33,587 nt of DNA from a candidate division WOR-3 bacterium (lineage in GTDB: Bacteria; Hydrothermota; Hydrothermia; LBFQ01; DSFT01). The notes under the pieces are model-generated. The model saw only the letters and a list, made by a program, of their open reading frames with translations, was not told the origin of the DNA and did no database searches. Made by a program: the position numbers and the translations under genes. Positions 4,985 through 31,926 of this stretch are shown piece by piece (the stretch's first letter is position 1; every line of letters starts with the position of its first letter). Location: assembly GCA_965649115.1 (NCBI GenBank), contig CBFGJN010000016.1, positions 1-33,587 on the forward strand, given 5' to 3'.

Positions 4985-7900
4985 ATGTCAAATCTTGAAT
5001 TTGTTCATTTACATGTTCATAGTGAATATAGTCTTTTAGATGGTGTTCCAAGTGTTTCAGATTTAATAAAAAAAGCAAAAGAACTTGGAATGAATGCTAT
5101 TGCATTAACTGACCATGGTAATTTGTTTGGTGTTATTGAATTTTATGAAAAGGCATTAGAGGAGGGGATAAAACCTATTATTGGAATGGAAGGATATTTA
5201 GCACCAAATCATAGAACACAAAAACCAATAAAAGAAGATGAAAACTCTTACTTTCACATTACACTAATTGCCATGAATGATGAAGGTTTAAAGAATTTAT
5301 ATAAATTATCAACATATGCTTATTTAGAAGGATTTTATACAAGACCAAGGATAGATAAAGAACTTCTTGAAAAGTATTCTAATGGTTTAATTGTTTTATC
5401 AGGTTGTCCAAAAGGAGAAATTCCTCAAAATGTTTTAATTGACAATTATGAGAATGTAAAAAATTTAGTTGGTTGGTTTTATGAAGTATTTAAAGATAAT
5501 TTTTATTTAGAAATTCAAGATGTAGGAATTGAAGAAAATAAGAAAATAAATAAAGAGCTTTTAGAGATTTCAAAAAAATTTAATATAAAAGTCGTTGCTA
5601 CAAATGATGTTCATTATATAAATAAAGAGGATTACATTATTCAAGATATTCTTTTGGCTATACATAGCAAAACAACATTAAATGACCCAAAACGATTTAA
5701 AATTGAAACAAGGGAAATTTATATGAAAAGCAAAGAAGAAATGTACGAATTATTTAAAGGTTATGAATTTTCTTTGAAAAATACAATTGAAATAGCAGAG
5801 AAATGTAATTATAACATAAAGCTAGACCCTAATAACTTAAAACTTCCAAAACTAAATGAAGAATTAAATTTAAGAGAGCTTGCTTATGAAGGTTTAAAGA
5901 AAAAATTCAATAATGAAATTCCTGAAATTTATAAACAACGACTTGAAATGGAACTTGAAGTAATAGAAAAACTTGGATTTGAAGGCTACTTTTTAATTGT
6001 TTATGATATTGTTAATTATGCCAAAAAGAATAATATCCCTGTGGGACCTGGTAGGGGAAGTGCTGCTGGAAGTTTAGTTTTGTATGCACTTGATATTACA
6101 AAAATTGACCCAATAAAATATAACTTATTGTTTGAAAGATTCTTAAATCCCGAGAGAATATCACCACCTGATGTTGATTTGGATTTTGGAGATATTAAAA
6201 GAGATAAGGTTATTGACTATATATTCCAAAAGTACGGTATAAATTCAACTGCACAAATTATAACATTTAATACACTTGGACCAAAAGCTGCTATAAAAGA
6301 TGTTGCAAGAGTTTTTAATTATCCTTATTCAGAAATTAATTATTTAACAAAATTAATCCCATATAATCCTAATGTTCAAAAATCAAAAGATGAAATTTTC
6401 GCTGAAATTAGAGAAATTCCAGAAATAAAAAGCGCATTAAAATCAAATCCACTGCTTGAAGAAATTTTAAAATATGCCTATAAAATAACAGGAAAACCAA
6501 GAACAACATCTGTTCATGCAGCAGGTGTAGCAATTGCACCTGGGAATATAACAGATTATGTTCCATTAGCACTATCAAAATCTTCTTCTAAAAAAGAAAA
6601 AATTATTACAACACAATTTGATAAAGATATTTTAGAAAAATTAGGAATTTTAAAAATTGATTTGCTTGGTGTAACTGTTTTGAGTATTATTGAAAAAACT
6701 GTTGAACTTATAAGACAAAGAAAAGACCCAAACTTTGACATTGATAAAATTCCTCTTGATGATAAGAAAACTTATGAAATGCTTTGGAAAGGTTATTTGC
6801 TTGGTGTATTTCAGCTTGAATCTTCAAGAGGAATGAGGGAATTAGTTATGAAAATGAAACCTGATAGATTTGAAGATTTAATAGCACTAATAGCATTATA
6901 TAGACCAGGAGCACTTGCTTGGGCAAATGAATATATTGATAGAAAATTTGGAAGAAAGAAAATTGAATATGATTTTGAAGAATTAGAAGATATTTTAAAA
7001 GAAACTTATGGAATAATTGTTTATCAAGAACAAGTTATGCAAATTGCTAATAAGTTAGCAGGATTTACACTTGGGCAAGCTGATGTTTTAAGAAAAGCAA
7101 TTGGAAAGAAAAAGAAGGATTTAATGGATCAAATGAGAGATGAATTTATAAATGGGGCAATAAGTAGAGGTAAAGATCCTGAAAAAGTGAAAAAGCTTTG
7201 GGAAACTATTGAAAAATTTGCAGAATATTCATTTAACAAATCGCATTCTGCTGGTTATGCAATGCTAACATATCAAACTGCTTATTTAAAGGCAAATTGG
7301 ACAATTGAATTTTATACCGCTATATTATCACTTGAAATGTTAAAAGGACAACAATTTTATAAAAAAGCACCTGCTATTATTTATGAAGCTAAACAATTTG
7401 GAATTAATATATTACCACCTGATATAAATGAGAGTGATTTTGAATTTAAAATTGAAAATGAAAATTCAATTAGGTATGGACTTGGAGGAATAAAAGGTAT
7501 AGGAATAAATACTATTGAAGATATTTTAAAGGCAAGAAAACTTGGTAAATTCAGAAGTTTAGAAGATTTAAAGATGAGAGTTAAAGGAATAAATAAGAAG
7601 GCACTTGAAGCATTGATAAAGTCTGGTGCTTGTGATGGAATTATAAAGTCAAGAAAATCCGCTCTTTTAAGAATTGATAGTAACTTAAAAGTTGGTTCAG
7701 TTGAAGGAGGACTATTTTCCAGCGTTATAGTTAATAAAGAAGATAATATTCAAAAAGATGATGAAAACTTTCTTTTAAAATGTGAGATGGAATCGCTTGG
7801 CATTTATCTTACTAGACATCCTTTAAATCCATTTAAAAATTTATTTGAAAATTATAGAGGAATAACAATTGAGGATATTTATAATGAAGAAATAAAAGAT

Positions 7901-13898: not shown

Positions 13899-13951
13899 GC
13901 TAACGCCCCCTATTAAATCCCCCAATAAATCAAATAATTGATTAAAACTTT
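13899..13951 (-). repeat. Degenerate MITE internal fragment
   Basis: GCCCCCTATTAAATCCCCCAATAAATCAA matches the interior of the 4483 and 33252 copies. Confidence 0.55.
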
Positions 13952-13987
13952 AAGAAACATCTGCCTTACCTTTAAAATTTTAGACCT

Positions 13988-14482: not shown

Positions 14483-14906
14483 ATATATTGGAAATTTTAG
14501 GTGGAAAGATATTTTTGAAAAACCTTATAAAACTAATGATAATTCATTTTTAAATGTTAAGCGTTTTGAGATCGTAAAAGGTAAGGATATTGAATTTAGA
14601 TATTTTGAAATTGAAAAAGGTGGTTATTCATCACTTGAAAGGCATGAACATGAACATATTGTAATGTTCATAAAGGGTAGAGGAATTGTTTTAATTGAAG
14701 ATGAAATTTATGAATTTGAACCATTTGATGTTATTTACATCCAATCATTTAAAGCACATAGATTTATAGCAAAATATGAAGATATAGGATTTATTTGTGT
14801 TGTAAAAAAAGATAGAGATAAACCTCAAAAATTAAATGAAGAAGAAATAAAAGCTTTAATTAACAAAAATCCAAATTTAAAGGAATTTTTAAAGTTCGGG
14901 GTATAG
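14472..14906 (+). CDS. Cupin-domain protein
   Basis: SSLERHEHEH and H-R-F metal-binding cupin motifs. Confidence 0.85.
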   Translation: MLFKYIGNFRWKDIFEKPYKTNDNSFLNVKRFEIVKGKDIEFRYFEIEKGGYSSLERHEHEHIVMFIKGRGIVLIEDEIYEFEPFDVIYIQSFKAHRFIAKYEDIGFICVVKKDRDKPQKLNEEEIKALINKNPNLKEFLKFGV

Positions 14907-14968
14907 CTCAATGGTAGAGCGTTCGGTTCGGGACCGAAAGGTTGCCGGTTCAAATCCGGCTACCCCGA
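14897..14968 (+). tRNA. tRNA-Pro (anticodon CGG), no encoded 3' CCA
   Basis: Acceptor CGGGGTA/TACCCCG, D arm GCTCAATGGTAGAGC, anticodon arm TTCGG-TTCGGGA-CCGAA, T arm GCCGG-TTCAAAT-CCGGC, discriminator A followed by ATT. Confidence 0.95.
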
Positions 14969-14969
14969 A

Positions 14970-16520
14970 TTGGTAGAAGAAAAATTAAAGAAAGTCGCTT
15001 CCGCTTTATTAGATAAATATAAACAAGTTTCAAAACCAAAAGAAAGTGTTATTATTTTTGTTTATAAAAAAGAACTTGGATGGGAAATTTTAAAATTAGC
15101 TTATGAACAAGGTTATAAAATTATAAATAAAACACTGCCATTTTATGTTGAATATAAAACTAATTTTGATTACTACGATTTCGGATTTCATAATGCTGAT
15201 ATTCCTTATGAAGAGAGAGAAGAAATTGAAGATGCTTTTAGAAAAGGAAAATTAAAGTGCTTAATTTCTACATCAACCTTGGCTTATGGTGTGAATTTAC
15301 CTGCTGATAGAGTAATTATATTATTAACTTCATTTTATGATAAAGAGAAAGGAAAAATGATAACACTTCCATCAATAACAGATGTTATCCAAATGGAAGG
15401 AAGGGCAGGAAGATTTGGTATTAAAGAAATAGGTTATGTTCATATATTGAGATACAGAACATCTAAAAAAACTTATGATAAAGTTTATGAAGAAACTTTT
15501 AATTCTTCTGATAGTGAAATTGTTAACGCACTTAAAAACATAGATAAAATTTTTGATGATTATTTAGGAGAAGCTGCAAGACTATCATCATTCATTTTAT
15601 CTGCTTATAAAATTAGTAATGGAGATGTTTTTGAATTTCTAAAAAGAACATTTTCATTTAAAGATTTTAACGATAAAAGAAAAATTACCTTTATTTTGGA
15701 TTTCCTAACTCAAAAAAAGTACATTGAAAACAATAAAGTTACAAAGAAAGGAGAATTTTGTTTAAGTAGCGGAATTCCACCAACTGCTTATGAAGAATTT
15801 TTAAAAAGAGCAAAAATAAAAGGTGATTTATTTGTAAAAATTAGACCATTAATTTGGACAAAAAGAATTAAAGATTGCTTAAAACCATTTTTAACTGAAG
15901 AAGATGTTATAAAATTTTATGATAAAAGCTTTTTAGAAGCTTTAAAGCCATTTGATTATCCTGAAGACGGCTCACATGAATTAATTTTCTATATTAAAGG
16001 TGGGCTTTTTAAATTAAGGAATATCCATAATCCTCCAAGTGAATTATATTTAGGAACAGAAGTTTTACACCTTTCAAAGGCACTCATAAAAATTTCTGAT
16101 TACTTCTTTCTTTCAAATGAAGATATTTTAAGAATTGCTCATTCACTAAGATATGGAATTGATTATGAATTTTCACCTATTGGTTCAATTGGAGGCATAG
16201 GTCATATGAGAGCAAACGCTATTAAATTAGCTATATCATTAAATCATAAAATTAAAAATTTTAGTTTTGAAAATAAGGTTAGTGATATTCTTGATTTATT
16301 AGATGAAAAAACATTAAAGGAAGTCCTTTCAATGAGATATACTCATTCTGAAAATATAAAAAGGGAAGCAAGCAATATCTTAAATGCGCTTTCAAAAAAT
16401 AGGGATAAAGTTCTTATAGATGAATATATTTTAAGAGGCATTAGTTTATTTAAGCTTGATAAAGAATCTGCATTAAAATTGCCAGTTAATGAGCTTCTTA
16501 ATAAATATCTTGAAAGCTAA
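14970..16520 (+). CDS. Ski2/Hel308-like SF2 helicase, C-terminal portion only (possible pseudogene)
   Basis: IIFV, GFHNAD, STSTLAYGVNLPA and QMEGRAGR (motifs IV-VI) plus GIGHMRA HhH-like motif. Walker A and DExH are absent. TTG start abuts the tRNA. Confidence 0.8.
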   Translation: MVEEKLKKVASALLDKYKQVSKPKESVIIFVYKKELGWEILKLAYEQGYKIINKTLPFYVEYKTNFDYYDFGFHNADIPYEEREEIEDAFRKGKLKCLISTSTLAYGVNLPADRVIILLTSFYDKEKGKMITLPSITDVIQMEGRAGRFGIKEIGYVHILRYRTSKKTYDKVYEETFNSSDSEIVNALKNIDKIFDDYLGEAARLSSFILSAYKISNGDVFEFLKRTFSFKDFNDKRKITFILDFLTQKKYIENNKVTKKGEFCLSSGIPPTAYEEFLKRAKIKGDLFVKIRPLIWTKRIKDCLKPFLTEEDVIKFYDKSFLEALKPFDYPEDGSHELIFYIKGGLFKLRNIHNPPSELYLGTEVLHLSKALIKISDYFFLSNEDILRIAHSLRYGIDYEFSPIGSIGGIGHMRANAIKLAISLNHKIKNFSFENKVSDILDLLDEKTLKEVLSMRYTHSENIKREASNILNALSKNRDKVLIDEYILRGISLFKLDKESALKLPVNELLNKYLES

Positions 16521-17329
16521 TGGAAATTTTAAATAATATCAATTACAAAAAATTTTCTTCAATTTCTGATTTTTTAGCATTTATTAGTATTTATGATGAT
16601 AATAATAGAACGATTGCTTGGAAAAATTTGATGCTAAAATATTCTAATTATTTTAAAAATGGTATTGTAGTTGAACTTGGTGCGGGTTTTGGATTATTTT
16701 CTGAATTCGCACTTGAACTTGGGGCAAAAAAGGTTTATGCAATTGAAAGAAATAGATATTTATTTAATGTTCTTAAAGAAAGGCTTTCAAAATATAAAGA
16801 AATAAAAGTTATTAATATAAATGCACTTAAATTTATACCAAAAGAACACATTGATGTTGTTATTCATGACTTTTATGGGCATTTACTTTATGATGAATCG
16901 TTATATATTCTTGATAATTTAAAATTTAAACCAAGTATTGTTATACCAAATGGCGGAAAGCTTAAACTTGGATTTTTTGATTTAAATGATATTGAAGATA
17001 ATGTTATTGATTATTCCATTTTAAGACAACTTAAAAATTTATTAATATCTGATTTATTTATAATTGAAAATAAACCTAAATTAACTATTGATTTAGCAAC
17101 TTGGTCATTTTCAGAAGGATTAAAAATTGATGAAATTGTTGATATTTCTAATTTCAAAGGTGAAATTCTATTGTTTTATCTTGAAGTTCTTCATAATAAT
17201 AACTTTGTTTGTGATGCTTTTGAATGTCAAAATTGGTCTTTGGTTTTTGCTTATAGATTTTCTGATAGATTTTCTTTGAAATTCAAGTGGGGTGGTGATT
17301 TTTGTAAAGTTTATTTTTCTTTTCTATGA
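16520..17329 (+). CDS. Class I SAM-dependent methyltransferase, PRMT-like
   Basis: DNNRT, VVELGAGFG, GAKKVYAIE, IDVVIHDFYGHLLYDE and VIP motifs. Confidence 0.75.
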   Translation: MEILNNINYKKFSSISDFLAFISIYDDNNRTIAWKNLMLKYSNYFKNGIVVELGAGFGLFSEFALELGAKKVYAIERNRYLFNVLKERLSKYKEIKVININALKFIPKEHIDVVIHDFYGHLLYDESLYILDNLKFKPSIVIPNGGKLKLGFFDLNDIEDNVIDYSILRQLKNLLISDLFIIENKPKLTIDLATWSFSEGLKIDEIVDISNFKGEILLFYLEVLHNNNFVCDAFECQNWSLVFAYRFSDRFSLKFKWGGDFCKVYFSFL

Positions 17330-18081
17330 ATTACAAAATTATAAAAAATGAAGATGAAATTTTAAAATTAGATGAGAAAATTAGATATGAGTTTTTAAAT
17401 TCAAGGAATCGTGTAAAAGTTGAAAAAATTCTAAATGGTTATTTATTCGTTCTTGTTATATCAATAAATAAAATGGTTGTTGTATTTTTTAATGAAAATG
17501 AAATGATATTTAGAAGCTTTGGTTTTGATATTGAAAATTACATTAGTAATAATTTTTCTGAAACATTATTTAGATTATTTCAGGAAATTGGAACAAATGA
17601 AATTGATAAATTAAGAGAAGAGCTTAAAAATCTTGAAGATAAAGTATTTTCAAAAATTGATTATCCAAAACTTGATAAATCATTACTTAAAAGTTTATAT
17701 TTTTATAAGAAATCAATAGATGAATTAGCGAGATATTATTTTCTACAAGAGGATTTATTAGAGGAAATGGAAATTGATAGAAAAGTCCTTTTTCAAATAA
17801 GAAGAATTAAAACTGCTCTTGAAAAAATTTCAAGTTCAACAAATTCCCTTATTGAAATATATCTTGAAATGATTGATACAGCAGCTAATGAAATTATGAA
17901 GTTTTTAACAATCATTGCTACAATTTTTATACCGCTATCATTTTTGGCAGGTGTTTATGGTATGAATTTTAAATATATTCCTGAACTTGAATGGAAATTT
18001 GGATATTTTTTGTTTTGGATTATTTGTATTGTTTTTTCAATTTTTTCAATTTTTTATTTTAAGAAAAAAAAGTGGATTTAA
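17326..18081 (+). CDS. corA: CorA family divalent cation transporter
   Basis: NEIMKFLTII, FLAGVYGMNF and IPEL motifs with two C-terminal TM helices. Confidence 0.9.
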   Translation: MNYKIIKNEDEILKLDEKIRYEFLNSRNRVKVEKILNGYLFVLVISINKMVVVFFNENEMIFRSFGFDIENYISNNFSETLFRLFQEIGTNEIDKLREELKNLEDKVFSKIDYPKLDKSLLKSLYFYKKSIDELARYYFLQEDLLEEMEIDRKVLFQIRRIKTALEKISSSTNSLIEIYLEMIDTAANEIMKFLTIIATIFIPLSFLAGVYGMNFKYIPELEWKFGYFLFWIICIVFSIFSIFYFKKKKWI

Positions 18082-19684
18082 CTTTTAATTTGCCTTTTTC
18101 CATATATATGATTTTAAAACCAATTGACTTGTTTATTTTATAGACTAACTTATAAATTGAAGAATTTTTTAATGAAGAAACGCGAATAATTTGAAATTTA
18201 TTTAGTGTTTTGTTTTCAAAAAGTTTTTTAATAAGTTTCATTTCTTCATTTGAAAGTTTAATTCTTATTAATTTTTTGGCAATTTTAAAAATTAAGAAAT
18301 TTTGATTAAATTTATATTTTAAGTTCAATGATAAATGAAAGTTCTTGTAAAATTCTTTAATAAAGTCCTTCAATTTTTCGGTTTTAAAAAGAATATATCC
18401 CAATCTTAATGTGAATGTGTTAGAATATCTTTTTGATAAATTTATTGCTCTTTTGTATTGACGATTTTTTAAAGCTAATAAAATTAAACTATCAATTGAA
18501 AATTTTGTTTTTGTATCTAAAAATAAGCAAAATTCTAAAATTTCCCTTGCTCTATCAGTTATAATATAATTCTTTATTTCATTATATATAGAAATTGCTT
18601 TTTCCCTTTCTCCAATTGCCACATAACAAATAGAAAGTAGTATTCCTGTTTGAACTTTTAAATGTTTAAATTGATAAGTTTTTTGAAATTCTCTAATTGC
18701 TTTTTCAATATAACCTTTCATAAAATAAATATAACCTTTTGCTAATGCTTTATCTCTCCTATCATCAATGTATTGAAGAATTGTGTTTGCTTTCTTAAAA
18801 TTGTTTTGATTTGTAAGGATAATAATAGCTGTTGAAGGATAAGCATATTTTTCTATATTCTCAATTGGAATGTTATAATAACCTTTCGTTGAAGAAACAG
18901 CTATAAAGTCAGATGTTAAGATATTAGGAAAATTTAATTTTTTAAGAATTTTATAAGCTGATTTTAAGAACTTTAATGAATGTTCTCCTTCACTTATTAA
19001 ACTACCTATTAATAGTGTATAAAACTTAATACAAATATCATTATGTTTAATGATATTCAAATTCTCAAAGGAAATTTTCATCAGCTCTTTATTACCAAGC
19101 CATAAAGCACATGAACCAAGTATAACATATGCTCTAATTAGTGAATAATTTAATTTCTCTTCTTTTAATTTTGGAATTATTTTATTTATTTCATAAATTG
19201 CTTTTTCATAATTTAGATTATAACTTAAATCAAGTGCAATTTTATTTAATTTTAAATGGGCAGGAAGTTCATCAAAATTGTACTTGCTTAATAATTCTAT
19301 ATTTGAAACAGTTCCAACAAGCTGAAAAATACCCATTTTTAAAAACTTTTCGGAAATATCAGTTTTTACATATCCAAAGTATAAAACCTCAAATTTTTCT
19401 TTATTAAATCCACATAATCCATAATCTCTTAAAATTCTAAATACTTTATCCTTGGATATGTTTAAAGTTTTACTAATTTCCTCAATCTTTAAACTTGGCT
19501 GTTCTTCTTTTAATCTAAAAATTCTATATCTTAATTCTATAAATTCCTTTAATTTTTTTTCCTTTTTCAAATATCTAAATACTGTTCTTTCTGAAACATT
19601 TAGGATTTGTGATATTTCTTTGATTTTAAATCCTTCATTTTTAAGTTTTATTGCCCTCAAAATTTTATCCAAGTTATCTGACAT
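18059..19684 (-). CDS. Putative transcriptional regulator with N-terminal HTH(s) and TPR-like helical repeats
   Basis: EISQILNVSERTVFRYL and EISKTLNISKDKVFRIL HTHs; AKGYIYFMKG..EKAI TPR-like segments. Confidence 0.6.
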   Translation of the reverse strand: MSDNLDKILRAIKLKNEGFKIKEISQILNVSERTVFRYLKKEKKLKEFIELRYRIFRLKEEQPSLKIEEISKTLNISKDKVFRILRDYGLCGFNKEKFEVLYFGYVKTDISEKFLKMGIFQLVGTVSNIELLSKYNFDELPAHLKLNKIALDLSYNLNYEKAIYEINKIIPKLKEEKLNYSLIRAYVILGSCALWLGNKELMKISFENLNIIKHNDICIKFYTLLIGSLISEGEHSLKFLKSAYKILKKLNFPNILTSDFIAVSSTKGYYNIPIENIEKYAYPSTAIIILTNQNNFKKANTILQYIDDRRDKALAKGYIYFMKGYIEKAIREFQKTYQFKHLKVQTGILLSICYVAIGEREKAISIYNEIKNYIITDRAREILEFCLFLDTKTKFSIDSLILLALKNRQYKRAINLSKRYSNTFTLRLGYILFKTEKLKDFIKEFYKNFHLSLNLKYKFNQNFLIFKIAKKLIRIKLSNEEMKLIKKLFENKTLNKFQIIRVSSLKNSSIYKLVYKINKSIGFKIIYMEKGKLKVKSTFFS

Positions 19685-31317: not shown

Positions 31318-31926
31318 ATGAATTTAGATAGTATATTTGAAGAGTGGAAAAATAATAATTATAAAATTTTGGAAAGTATTAAGAGAAGAGTTAAAAATGA
31401 AAAAATTATTGAAGCATTTACTAAAATTCCAAGAAATTTATTTGTTGAAAATGAACCATTTGAAGATAAAGCAGTTTATTATGATCTTGGACAAACTTCA
31501 TCTCAACCGAGTTTAATTGCAGAAATGTTAGAATTACTTGAAATAAAAAAGGATGACAAGGTACTTGAAATAGGAACGGGAAGTGGTTATTTAACTGCTT
31601 TATTATGTGAGCTATCTTGCTTCGTTTATTCTATTGATATATTTGAAGAATTCATAATAAGAGCAGATGAAAAATTAAAATTACTAAATTATAAAAACTA
31701 TAAGTTATTTGTTAGAGACGGAAATTTTGGTTTAGTAGAATTTTCTCCTTATGATAAAATTATCGTTTCTGCTTATGTTGAAAATGTTCCAATCAGTCTA
31801 TTAGAGCAATTGAAAGTTGGAGGTATTATGGTTATTCCCATTGGCAAAAAAAACTTTCAACATCTTTACAAAATAATTAAAGGTGAGGCGGTTAGCTTTG
31901 TGCCATTAATTACTTTAAAATTTTAA
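31318..31926 (+). CDS. pcm: Protein-L-isoaspartate O-methyltransferase
   Basis: GQTSSQP, VLEIGTGSGY, PYDKIIVSA, QLKVGG.MVIPIG and FVPL motifs. Confidence 0.92.
   Translation: MNLDSIFEEWKNNNYKILESIKRRVKNEKIIEAFTKIPRNLFVENEPFEDKAVYYDLGQTSSQPSLIAEMLELLEIKKDDKVLEIGTGSGYLTALLCELSCFVYSIDIFEEFIIRADEKLKLLNYKNYKLFVRDGNFGLVEFSPYDKIIVSAYVENVPISLLEQLKVGGIMVIPIGKKNFQHLYKIIKGEAVSFVPLITLKF

Follow-up and report, generated by a model that had tools for sequence, protein, structure and literature searches.

A compact methyltransferase with a PRMT-like core predicted in a candidate division WOR-3 bacterium

The methyltransferase gene and its conserved residues

We analysed a 33,587-nucleotide stretch of a candidate division WOR-3 genome (contig CBFGJN010000016.1 of assembly GCA_965649115.1), called the window below, which carries a complete gene for a 269-residue methyltransferase resembling the protein arginine methyltransferases (PRMTs). 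The window lies on contig C16 of the 1.85-Mb assembly (99 contigs, completeness 94.5%), has a G+C content of about 21–34% and is bacterial in content, with DnaE, GlyQ, NusB and an M23 peptidase encoded. The methyltransferase gene overlaps both of its neighbours: TAATG combines the TAA stop of the gene upstream with its own ATG start, and ATGA combines its TGA stop with the ATG of the gene downstream. It is present in the genome as a single copy and is under purifying selection, with a dN/dS of 0.22 against an 87%-identical relative, L002.

Conservation was assessed on 77 distinct sequences, namely 49 loci from a genome scan, the window protein and database members (80 collected, three duplicates removed). 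R30, G54, G56, E76, G120, D125, P143, L148 and N238 are invariant, while D27, Y25, E126, W239, L19, P107 and L123 are found in 76 of the 77. A D..RT motif, motif I with post-I, a double-acid loop and a late QNW had been picked out in the original prediction; all are present (Table 1) and, being near-universal in the family, are conserved beyond chance. In the double-acid loop, HDFYGHLLYDE of the window protein aligns to SEWMGYFLLFE of PRMTs, so that D117 and E126 correspond to the first and second Glu, respectively, of the double-E loop in PRMTs, and the invariant D125 adjoining E126 is an extra acid specific to the family. Position 117 is Glu in 45 sequences and Asp in 32, the window protein among the latter, so that the predicted replacement of E/E by D/E holds within the window's clade but does not describe the family, whose loop is either E/E or D/E. 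Two other features characterize the family: a conserved N-terminus, MEILN, with N5 kept in 73 of 77 sequences, and a pair of cysteines, C231 and C236, both present in 68 sequences, both missing in seven and one missing in two. This covariation points to a paired role, for example as a disulfide or a clamp.

The second cysteine is followed by the Asn-Trp pair of a loop that we compare with the Thr-His-Trp (THW) loop of PRMTs. A MAFFT alignment of nine family members with three other compact PRMT-like and seven PRMT-like proteins sets the xNW of the family beneath THW, HHW, NHW or KHW, W239 standing under the THW Trp, and the Trp is kept in at least 90% of the rows; among the 77 sequences, the Thr position is variable. 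The surrounding elements come in the same order on both sides: the strand LLFYLEVLH, the short strand FVCDA, the NW loop and the strand LVFA in the model of the window protein, and WFDVxF, LSTSP, xxxxTHW and QxxFxL in the PRMT-like consensus. The putative equivalence of N238 with the THW histidine is thus supported at the level of alignment. PRMT5, too, is not known to carry the THW histidine.

Table 1. Features of the methyltransferase gene and of the surrounding part of the window
Feature	Position	Strand	Remarks
PRMT-fold methyltransferase gene, complete	16520..17329	+	ATG start, 269 aa
N-terminal helices and Rossmann S-adenosylmethionine (SAM)-binding domain	16520..16933	+	about aa 1–138; alternating strands and helices in the model
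D..RT motif, DNNRT (D27, R30)	16598..16612	+	aa 27–31; aligns with the D..RT motif of PRMT3 and PRMT8, and with DKVRT and DEVRT
Motif I, VVELGAGFG, and post-I, GAKKVYAIE: VVELGAGFGLFSEFALELGAKKVYAIE	16667..16747	+	aa 50–76; acidic E76
Double-acid loop: IDVVIHDFYGHLLYDE	16850..16897	+	aa 111–126; D117, D125, E126
C-terminal all-beta domain	16934..17326	+	about aa 139–269; predicted to superpose on the PRMT beta-barrel
C-x4-C-x-N-W loop (C231, C236, N238, W239)	17210..17236	+	THW-loop counterpart in the MAFFT alignment, Asn for His
QNW	17228..17236	+	aa 237–239
tRNA-Pro (CGG)	14896..14969	+	the helicase-half gene starts, with TTG, at the very next base
Helicase-half gene	14970..16520	+	516 aa
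CorA-like channel gene	17326..18081	+	251 aa
Helix-turn-helix gene	18059..19684	-	541 aa; two N-terminal helix-turn-helix units (HTH_23 and others), weak TPR-like matches
Protein-L-isoaspartate O-methyltransferase (PCMT) gene	31318..31926	+	E 9e-46
Repeated segment, about 52 bases	13906..13957		covers the start and upstream region of a minus-strand DUF3996-family gene

Profile searches and predicted structure

Neither Pfam nor NCBIfam holds a model specific to the family, and its members are publicly named 'hypothetical protein', 'SAM-dependent methyltransferase', 'rRNA adenine N-6-methyltransferase family protein' or 'RsmD', none of them PRMT. In Pfam, the Rossmann half matches RrnaAD (E 5.3e-9, 36 bits against a cut-off of 24) at profile positions 28–119 of 263 and FtsJ partially (E 2.6e-6); PRMT5 (E 0.021) and PrmA (E 0.073, 13 bits against 22) remain below cut-off, and the C-terminal half has no Pfam match. 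The NCBIfam matches, to Erm, TlyA, KsgA, RsmD, PrmA and others, all fall far short of their cut-offs (ksgA 28.1 bits against 171; Erm models 32 against 475 and 27.7 against 212; RsmD 16 against 117; PrmA NF001785 14.7 against 188). Automatic annotation would make these proteins rRNA adenine dimethylases of the KsgA/Erm type, a reading that can point to the RrnaAD match and to one relative (P0009) so named in its source record. Such an identity is very improbable, given that no full-length family match was found, that RrnaAD is covered over less than half its length and that the ksgA and Erm models fail; the rRNA adenine methylase label that the family carries in public records is probably mistaken. 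PrmA, the ribosomal protein L11 methyltransferase, acts on a protein and has a SAM-binding Rossmann domain that is broadly of this class; it had been named beforehand as an alternative to a PRMT, and its models stay under the cut-offs of both libraries.

Arginine methyltransferases occupy the top 40 places of a single-sequence search against all PDB chains, the best being PRMT3 (1f3l, 3.9e-12) and the first non-PRMT match PH1948 (6e-5). With a 17-member family profile, the best 58 of the 60 matches listed are arginine methyltransferases (PRMT3 7e-19, CARM1 about 1e-17, also PRMT8, PRMT1, TbPRMT7, PRMT6 and PRMT2), and the first protein of another kind appears at 2.3e-8. The alignments to PRMT3, PRMT8 and CARM1 place D27 and R30 on D..RT, VVELGAGFG on motif I and E76 on the post-I acid. 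When the family profile was compared by hhalign with seven PRMT-like proteins, the match was strong (probability 99.65%, E 5e-25) over residues 12–163 and then ended, which indicates that the C-terminal domain is too diverged for sequence profiles.

The structure was modelled with AlphaFold2 on a 17-sequence alignment. In the model (mean predicted local distance difference test score 92.1, predicted TM-score 0.88), the N-terminal half is of the Rossmann type and the C-terminal half consists of beta strands. In a Foldseek search of the PDB, all the matches listed down to rank 50 are PRMTs (Hmt1 3.4e-15, TbPRMT7, PRMT3 and others), the alignments spanning about 300 columns; structural alignments extend to residue 269. 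This comparison was the one named beforehand as able to overturn the prediction, had PrmA or a small-molecule methyltransferase been the best match; its outcome supports the prediction. All the solved proteins that match both domains of the model are arginine methyltransferases, and the C-terminal domain is predicted to form a beta-barrel packed on the Rossmann domain, as in PRMTs, in a model whose predictor was presumably trained on solved PRMT structures. The proposal of a compact PRMT-like enzyme is thus supported by the PDB searches, the profile match, the fold match and the conserved double-acid loop.

The eukaryotic type I and III PRMTs (PRMT1, PRMT3, PRMT6, PRMT8, CARM1 and TbPRMT7), with chains of about 310–350 residues, are longer than the window protein and share 12–20% identity with it in structural alignments. 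They differ from it in the THW histidine, replaced by Asn throughout the family, and in the first Glu of the acidic loop, replaced by Asp in the window's clade, whereas the Cys-x4-Cys clamp, the invariant D125, the MEILN N-terminus and the bacterial host set the family apart. A further difference concerns the segment joining the first barrel strand (residues 145–153) to the next long strand (189–196). In the model, this 35-residue link (residues 154–188) contains a single five-residue helix, and in the MAFFT alignment the family shows a long gap here opposite the PRMT-like rows. We take the link to be the site of the helix-turn-helix dimerization arm in the PRMT1 and PRMT3 structures; the helical arm of the eukaryotic enzymes accordingly appears to be reduced in the modelled window protein.

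Other short two-domain PRMT-like proteins were also encountered: P0051 (296 aa), P0060 (293 aa), P0090 (284 aa) and the phage protein A0A6J5L7A5 (313 aa). They carry an HE..(G/S)..E loop followed by HHW, NHW or KHW, and thus, unlike the window family, keep the His before the Trp. The P0051, P0060 and P0090 group is 21–23% identical to the window protein, and some of its members are named 'RsmD' by JGI. A0A6J5L7A5, from an uncultured Caudovirales in BFVD, matches the model with a Foldseek E of 6e-13 and a TMq of 0.66 over 302 columns; D6PIP9, a 248-residue protein of the same source, has the same two-domain fold (E 2.7e-9), and Uroviricota clusters of 265–290 aa are among the look-alikes in the ESM Atlas. 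Such phage-encoded PRMT-fold methyltransferases may be worth separate attention. The likeness is at the level of the fold, no sequence-level relative of the window family having been found in the phage and viral collections. A phage origin of the gene was considered and rejected: tblastn gave no match in 50,697 phage records, and none of 65 pattern matches in viral contigs was confirmed.

Family distribution and gene neighbourhood

A word-indexed search found 17 family clusters at 90% identity, 251–282 aa in length. An exhaustive HMMER search of 1.84 billion representatives returned 24 proteins at E≤1e-30 and 7,984 at E≤1e-3, with a clear step in the scores: the last full-length family member has 233 bits and is followed by family fragments, and the first non-family proteins have at most 93 bits. 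These next proteins carry the canonical SEWMGY..E and THW; of ten looked up, the three with names were two eukaryotic PRMTs, namely a fungal CARMER and an insect PRMT6-like protein, and a generic 'SAM-dependent methyltransferase'.

Scanning one genome for each of 185,579 species gave 86 confirmed stretches, of which 79 loci were kept. At least 49 of these (L002–L050) encode near-full-length relatives, with E from 6e-156 to 4e-52, in genomes labelled Candidatus Hydrothermia (87% identity), Caldipriscus, Saprospiraceae, Bacteroidales, Cytophagia, KSB1, Kapabacteria, Rhodothermus, Calditrichota, Ignavibacteriae, Deferribacteres, Treponemataceae and others. Among the 30 weaker loci (L051–L080), 29 were set aside as other methyltransferases that match only in the motif I/post-I region. 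At L061, labelled Candidatus Tectomicrobia, a 492-aa open reading frame (ORF) around 6001–6363 covers positions 25–297 of a PRMT-like profile (E 1.4e-27) and is, judged by this match, a different and longer bacterial PRMT-like protein.

In a quick maximum-likelihood tree of 50 rows, the window protein pairs with L002 (support 100) inside a nine-row group of Hydrothermia/Hydrothermota, Caldipriscus and 'Thermotogota'-labelled bins (support 92; 97 for a seven-row core), which opposes the other 41 rows, from Bacteroidota and further phyla of the FCB group. The Treponemataceae rows are nested among those of Bacteroidota, which suggests some horizontal movement of the gene. Within the window's phylum, the gene occurs in 41 of 201 sampled genomes at E≤1e-20 (27 of 152 of good quality), and in some families it is present in all genomes or in none (11/11, 6/6 and 5/5 against 0/8, 0/19, 0/14 and 0/20). 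Only one of the four other genomes of the genus has it, the three that lack it being 87–94% complete. All the carriers encountered in the analysis are metagenome-assembled genomes.

A substrate other than a protein, be it free arginine or a small metabolite of guanidino or peptide type as in natural-product pathways, would suit this patchy, accessory distribution. It also has precedents: SznE of the streptozotocin cluster is an arginine methyltransferase producing omega-N-methylarginine (PMC12637814), and the bacterial homologues of the PRMT catalytic domain described by Aravind and co-workers, as related in PMC3417536, are peptide methylases whose genes lie in operons for antibiotic-like biosynthesis or which form part of giant synthetases by fusion. 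The window family shares with these methylases, as described there, a bacterial PRMT-like domain, and differs from that description in its stand-alone chain of about 270 residues and in its surroundings. Pfam (E≤1e-6) identified no biosynthetic partner (nonribosomal peptide synthetase, polyketide synthase, oxygenase or other) among the 91 immediate-neighbour ORFs of the 49 loci. They are instead a housekeeping mix: S9 peptidases (four), S49 peptidases, CHASE2 cyclases, M23 peptidases and class-V aminotransferases (three each), RsmB/F (two), secreted fn3/FlgD_ig proteins (five) and many singletons. In the window itself, the gene is flanked by those for a helicase half and a CorA-like channel. 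We therefore regard a small-molecule substrate as quite unlikely.

The translationally coupled trio of helicase half, methyltransferase and CorA-like gene recurs only in the near-identical relative L002/G119. A conserved operon was rejected, as tblastn of ten window neighbour proteins against the 49 loci found them in L002 alone. The tRNA-Pro gene and the helicase-half gene are adjacent in all five genomes of the genus (70–87% DNA identity), and the methyltransferase stands next to them only in the window and its nearest relative.

The helicase-half protein comprises only the second RecA domain (Helicase_C, residues 20–150) and the winged-helix/ratchet part; its best PDB matches are SLH1, ASCC3, Brr2 and residues ~300–472 of Hel308. 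The DEAD/RecA1 half is encoded by a separate 223-aa ORF on contig C25 (about 18941–19612; L089:1442–2113), between PntB-like and Mur-ligase-like genes, and has the same best PDB matches (Hel308 residues 24–210). A Ski2/Hel308-like helicase thus appears, from these matches, to be encoded in two parts by genes that lie apart in the genome, and the window half is no recent truncation, since it measures 510–520 aa in all five genomes of the genus. The CorA-like protein matches positions 141–320 of the 320-position corA model, below cut-off; only fragments of its gene align in L002/G119, and another genome of the genus has an intact copy of 253 aa, placed upstream of the tRNA instead. The helix-turn-helix gene converges on the CorA-like gene, their ends overlapping. 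Farther away, the PCMT gene is a second gene for a protein-modifying methyltransferase in the window, unrelated to the PRMT-fold gene. On the other side, the repeated segment upstream of the tRNA has matches of about 79% identity on at least 25 contigs of the same assembly, many of them less than 100 bases from a contig end, and may be a dispersed repeat or belong to a paralogous gene family that breaks the assembly.

Proposed activity and significance

On balance, we lean towards a cytoplasmic SAM-dependent N-methyltransferase that is a true, shortened homologue of the eukaryotic PRMT core and methylates a guanidino nitrogen, most likely that of an arginine in a protein or peptide. Guanidino methylation is favoured because the conserved residues match the SAM-binding and guanidinium-clamping residues of PRMTs one for one, and because the only solved proteins matching both domains are arginine methyltransferases. 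SAM would be held by the Rossmann domain through the GAGFG of motif I, with E76 contacting the ribose hydroxyls and R30 the SAM carboxylate; these residues are observed in the protein, and the roles given to them are those suggested by structural knowledge of PRMT1 and PRMT3. The guanidino group, most likely of an arginine side chain, would enter the cleft that separates the Rossmann domain from the beta-barrel, where D117 (E in most relatives) and E126, aided by the family-specific D125, would clamp and polarize it. The N238-W239 loop, stiffened by Cys231/Cys236, would close the pocket as the THW loop does, Asn238 standing in for the His that pairs with the aspartate of D..R (D27). The methyl group would then pass from SAM to a terminal nitrogen by SN2. 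Because the gene is accessory and stand-alone, the enzyme probably modifies a single specific site or a few such sites, and not Gly-Arg-rich tracts.

Several observations weigh against this reading. Asn occupies the position of the THW His throughout the 77 sequences, and in the window's clade the first acid is the shorter Asp, so the pocket is not identical to that of any characterized PRMT. The beta-barrel is not detected by sequence profiles in the hhalign comparison with the seven PRMT-like proteins, which goes no further than residue 166, and its PRMT likeness therefore comes from the predicted model and one MAFFT alignment. Pfam places the Rossmann half in RrnaAD above cut-off. No shared partner emerges among the immediate neighbours of the 49 loci, either by clustering of all ORFs or by Pfam on the 91 neighbour ORFs. 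Finally, no Gly-Arg-rich tract of the PRMT1 type was found when the genome's 4,374 open frames of 60 aa or more were examined, which makes a PRMT1-style target set unlikely. A loose threshold of RG-richness was passed by three frames: one with a stretch like a uL2 motif, a short unannotated one and one with three scattered RGG/GGR. The first of these is the only RG-rich stretch in a recognizable protein, and presumably corresponds to the conserved motif of ribosomal protein uL2.

The same pocket residues leave room for a PRMT-like fold with a remodelled acceptor specificity, acting for example on the amine of a lysine or of an N-terminus, on the amide of a glutamine, on a histidine or on a base in a nucleic acid. 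The substitution of the THW His by N238, the family-specific D125 and the Asp at position 117 would all be compatible with this, and the (D/E)-F-(Y/F)-G that follows strand 4 recalls what we take to be the (D/N)PP(Y/F) of amino-methyltransferases. The RrnaAD and FtsJ matches of the Rossmann half and the rRNA adenine N-6-methyltransferase and RsmD names of relatives also speak for another acceptor. With both loop acids and the Trp at PRMT positions, arginine methyltransferases as the only solved matches to both domains, and KsgA, Erm and RsmD scores far below their NCBIfam cut-offs, we nevertheless consider it unlikely.

PRMT-type arginine methylation is usually regarded as a eukaryotic trait. 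It is called 'widespread among eukaryotes' in PMC12925635, and bacterial PRMT-like domains as such are already in print (PMC3417536). Our full-text searches, which did not reach subscription papers, found no description of the window family. With its compact, stand-alone PRMT core, its Asn at the THW position, its probable clamp of two Cys and its apparently reduced arm, the family is a credible candidate for PRMT-type arginine methylation in bacteria.

The family is well conserved and, according to the model, fits both domains of the PRMT core, complete, into about 270 residues. If protein arginines are methylated, it would provide a tractable and probably thermostable minimal PRMT for work on mechanism and structure. 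It would also offer a first way into the study of PRMT-type arginine methylation in bacteria and would add to what can be said of the bacterial ancestry of the eukaryotic PRMTs. More tentatively, it is possible that the window protein is a minimal, arm-less and perhaps monomeric PRMT that truly methylates arginines of proteins in free-living bacteria of the FCB group and WOR-3-like lineages, is inherited largely vertically and is one of the nearest stand-alone relatives that the eukaryotic PRMT core has in prokaryotes. Were this so, these bacteria would possess a native arginine-methylation system, which would also serve as a model for the origin of the eukaryotic enzymes.

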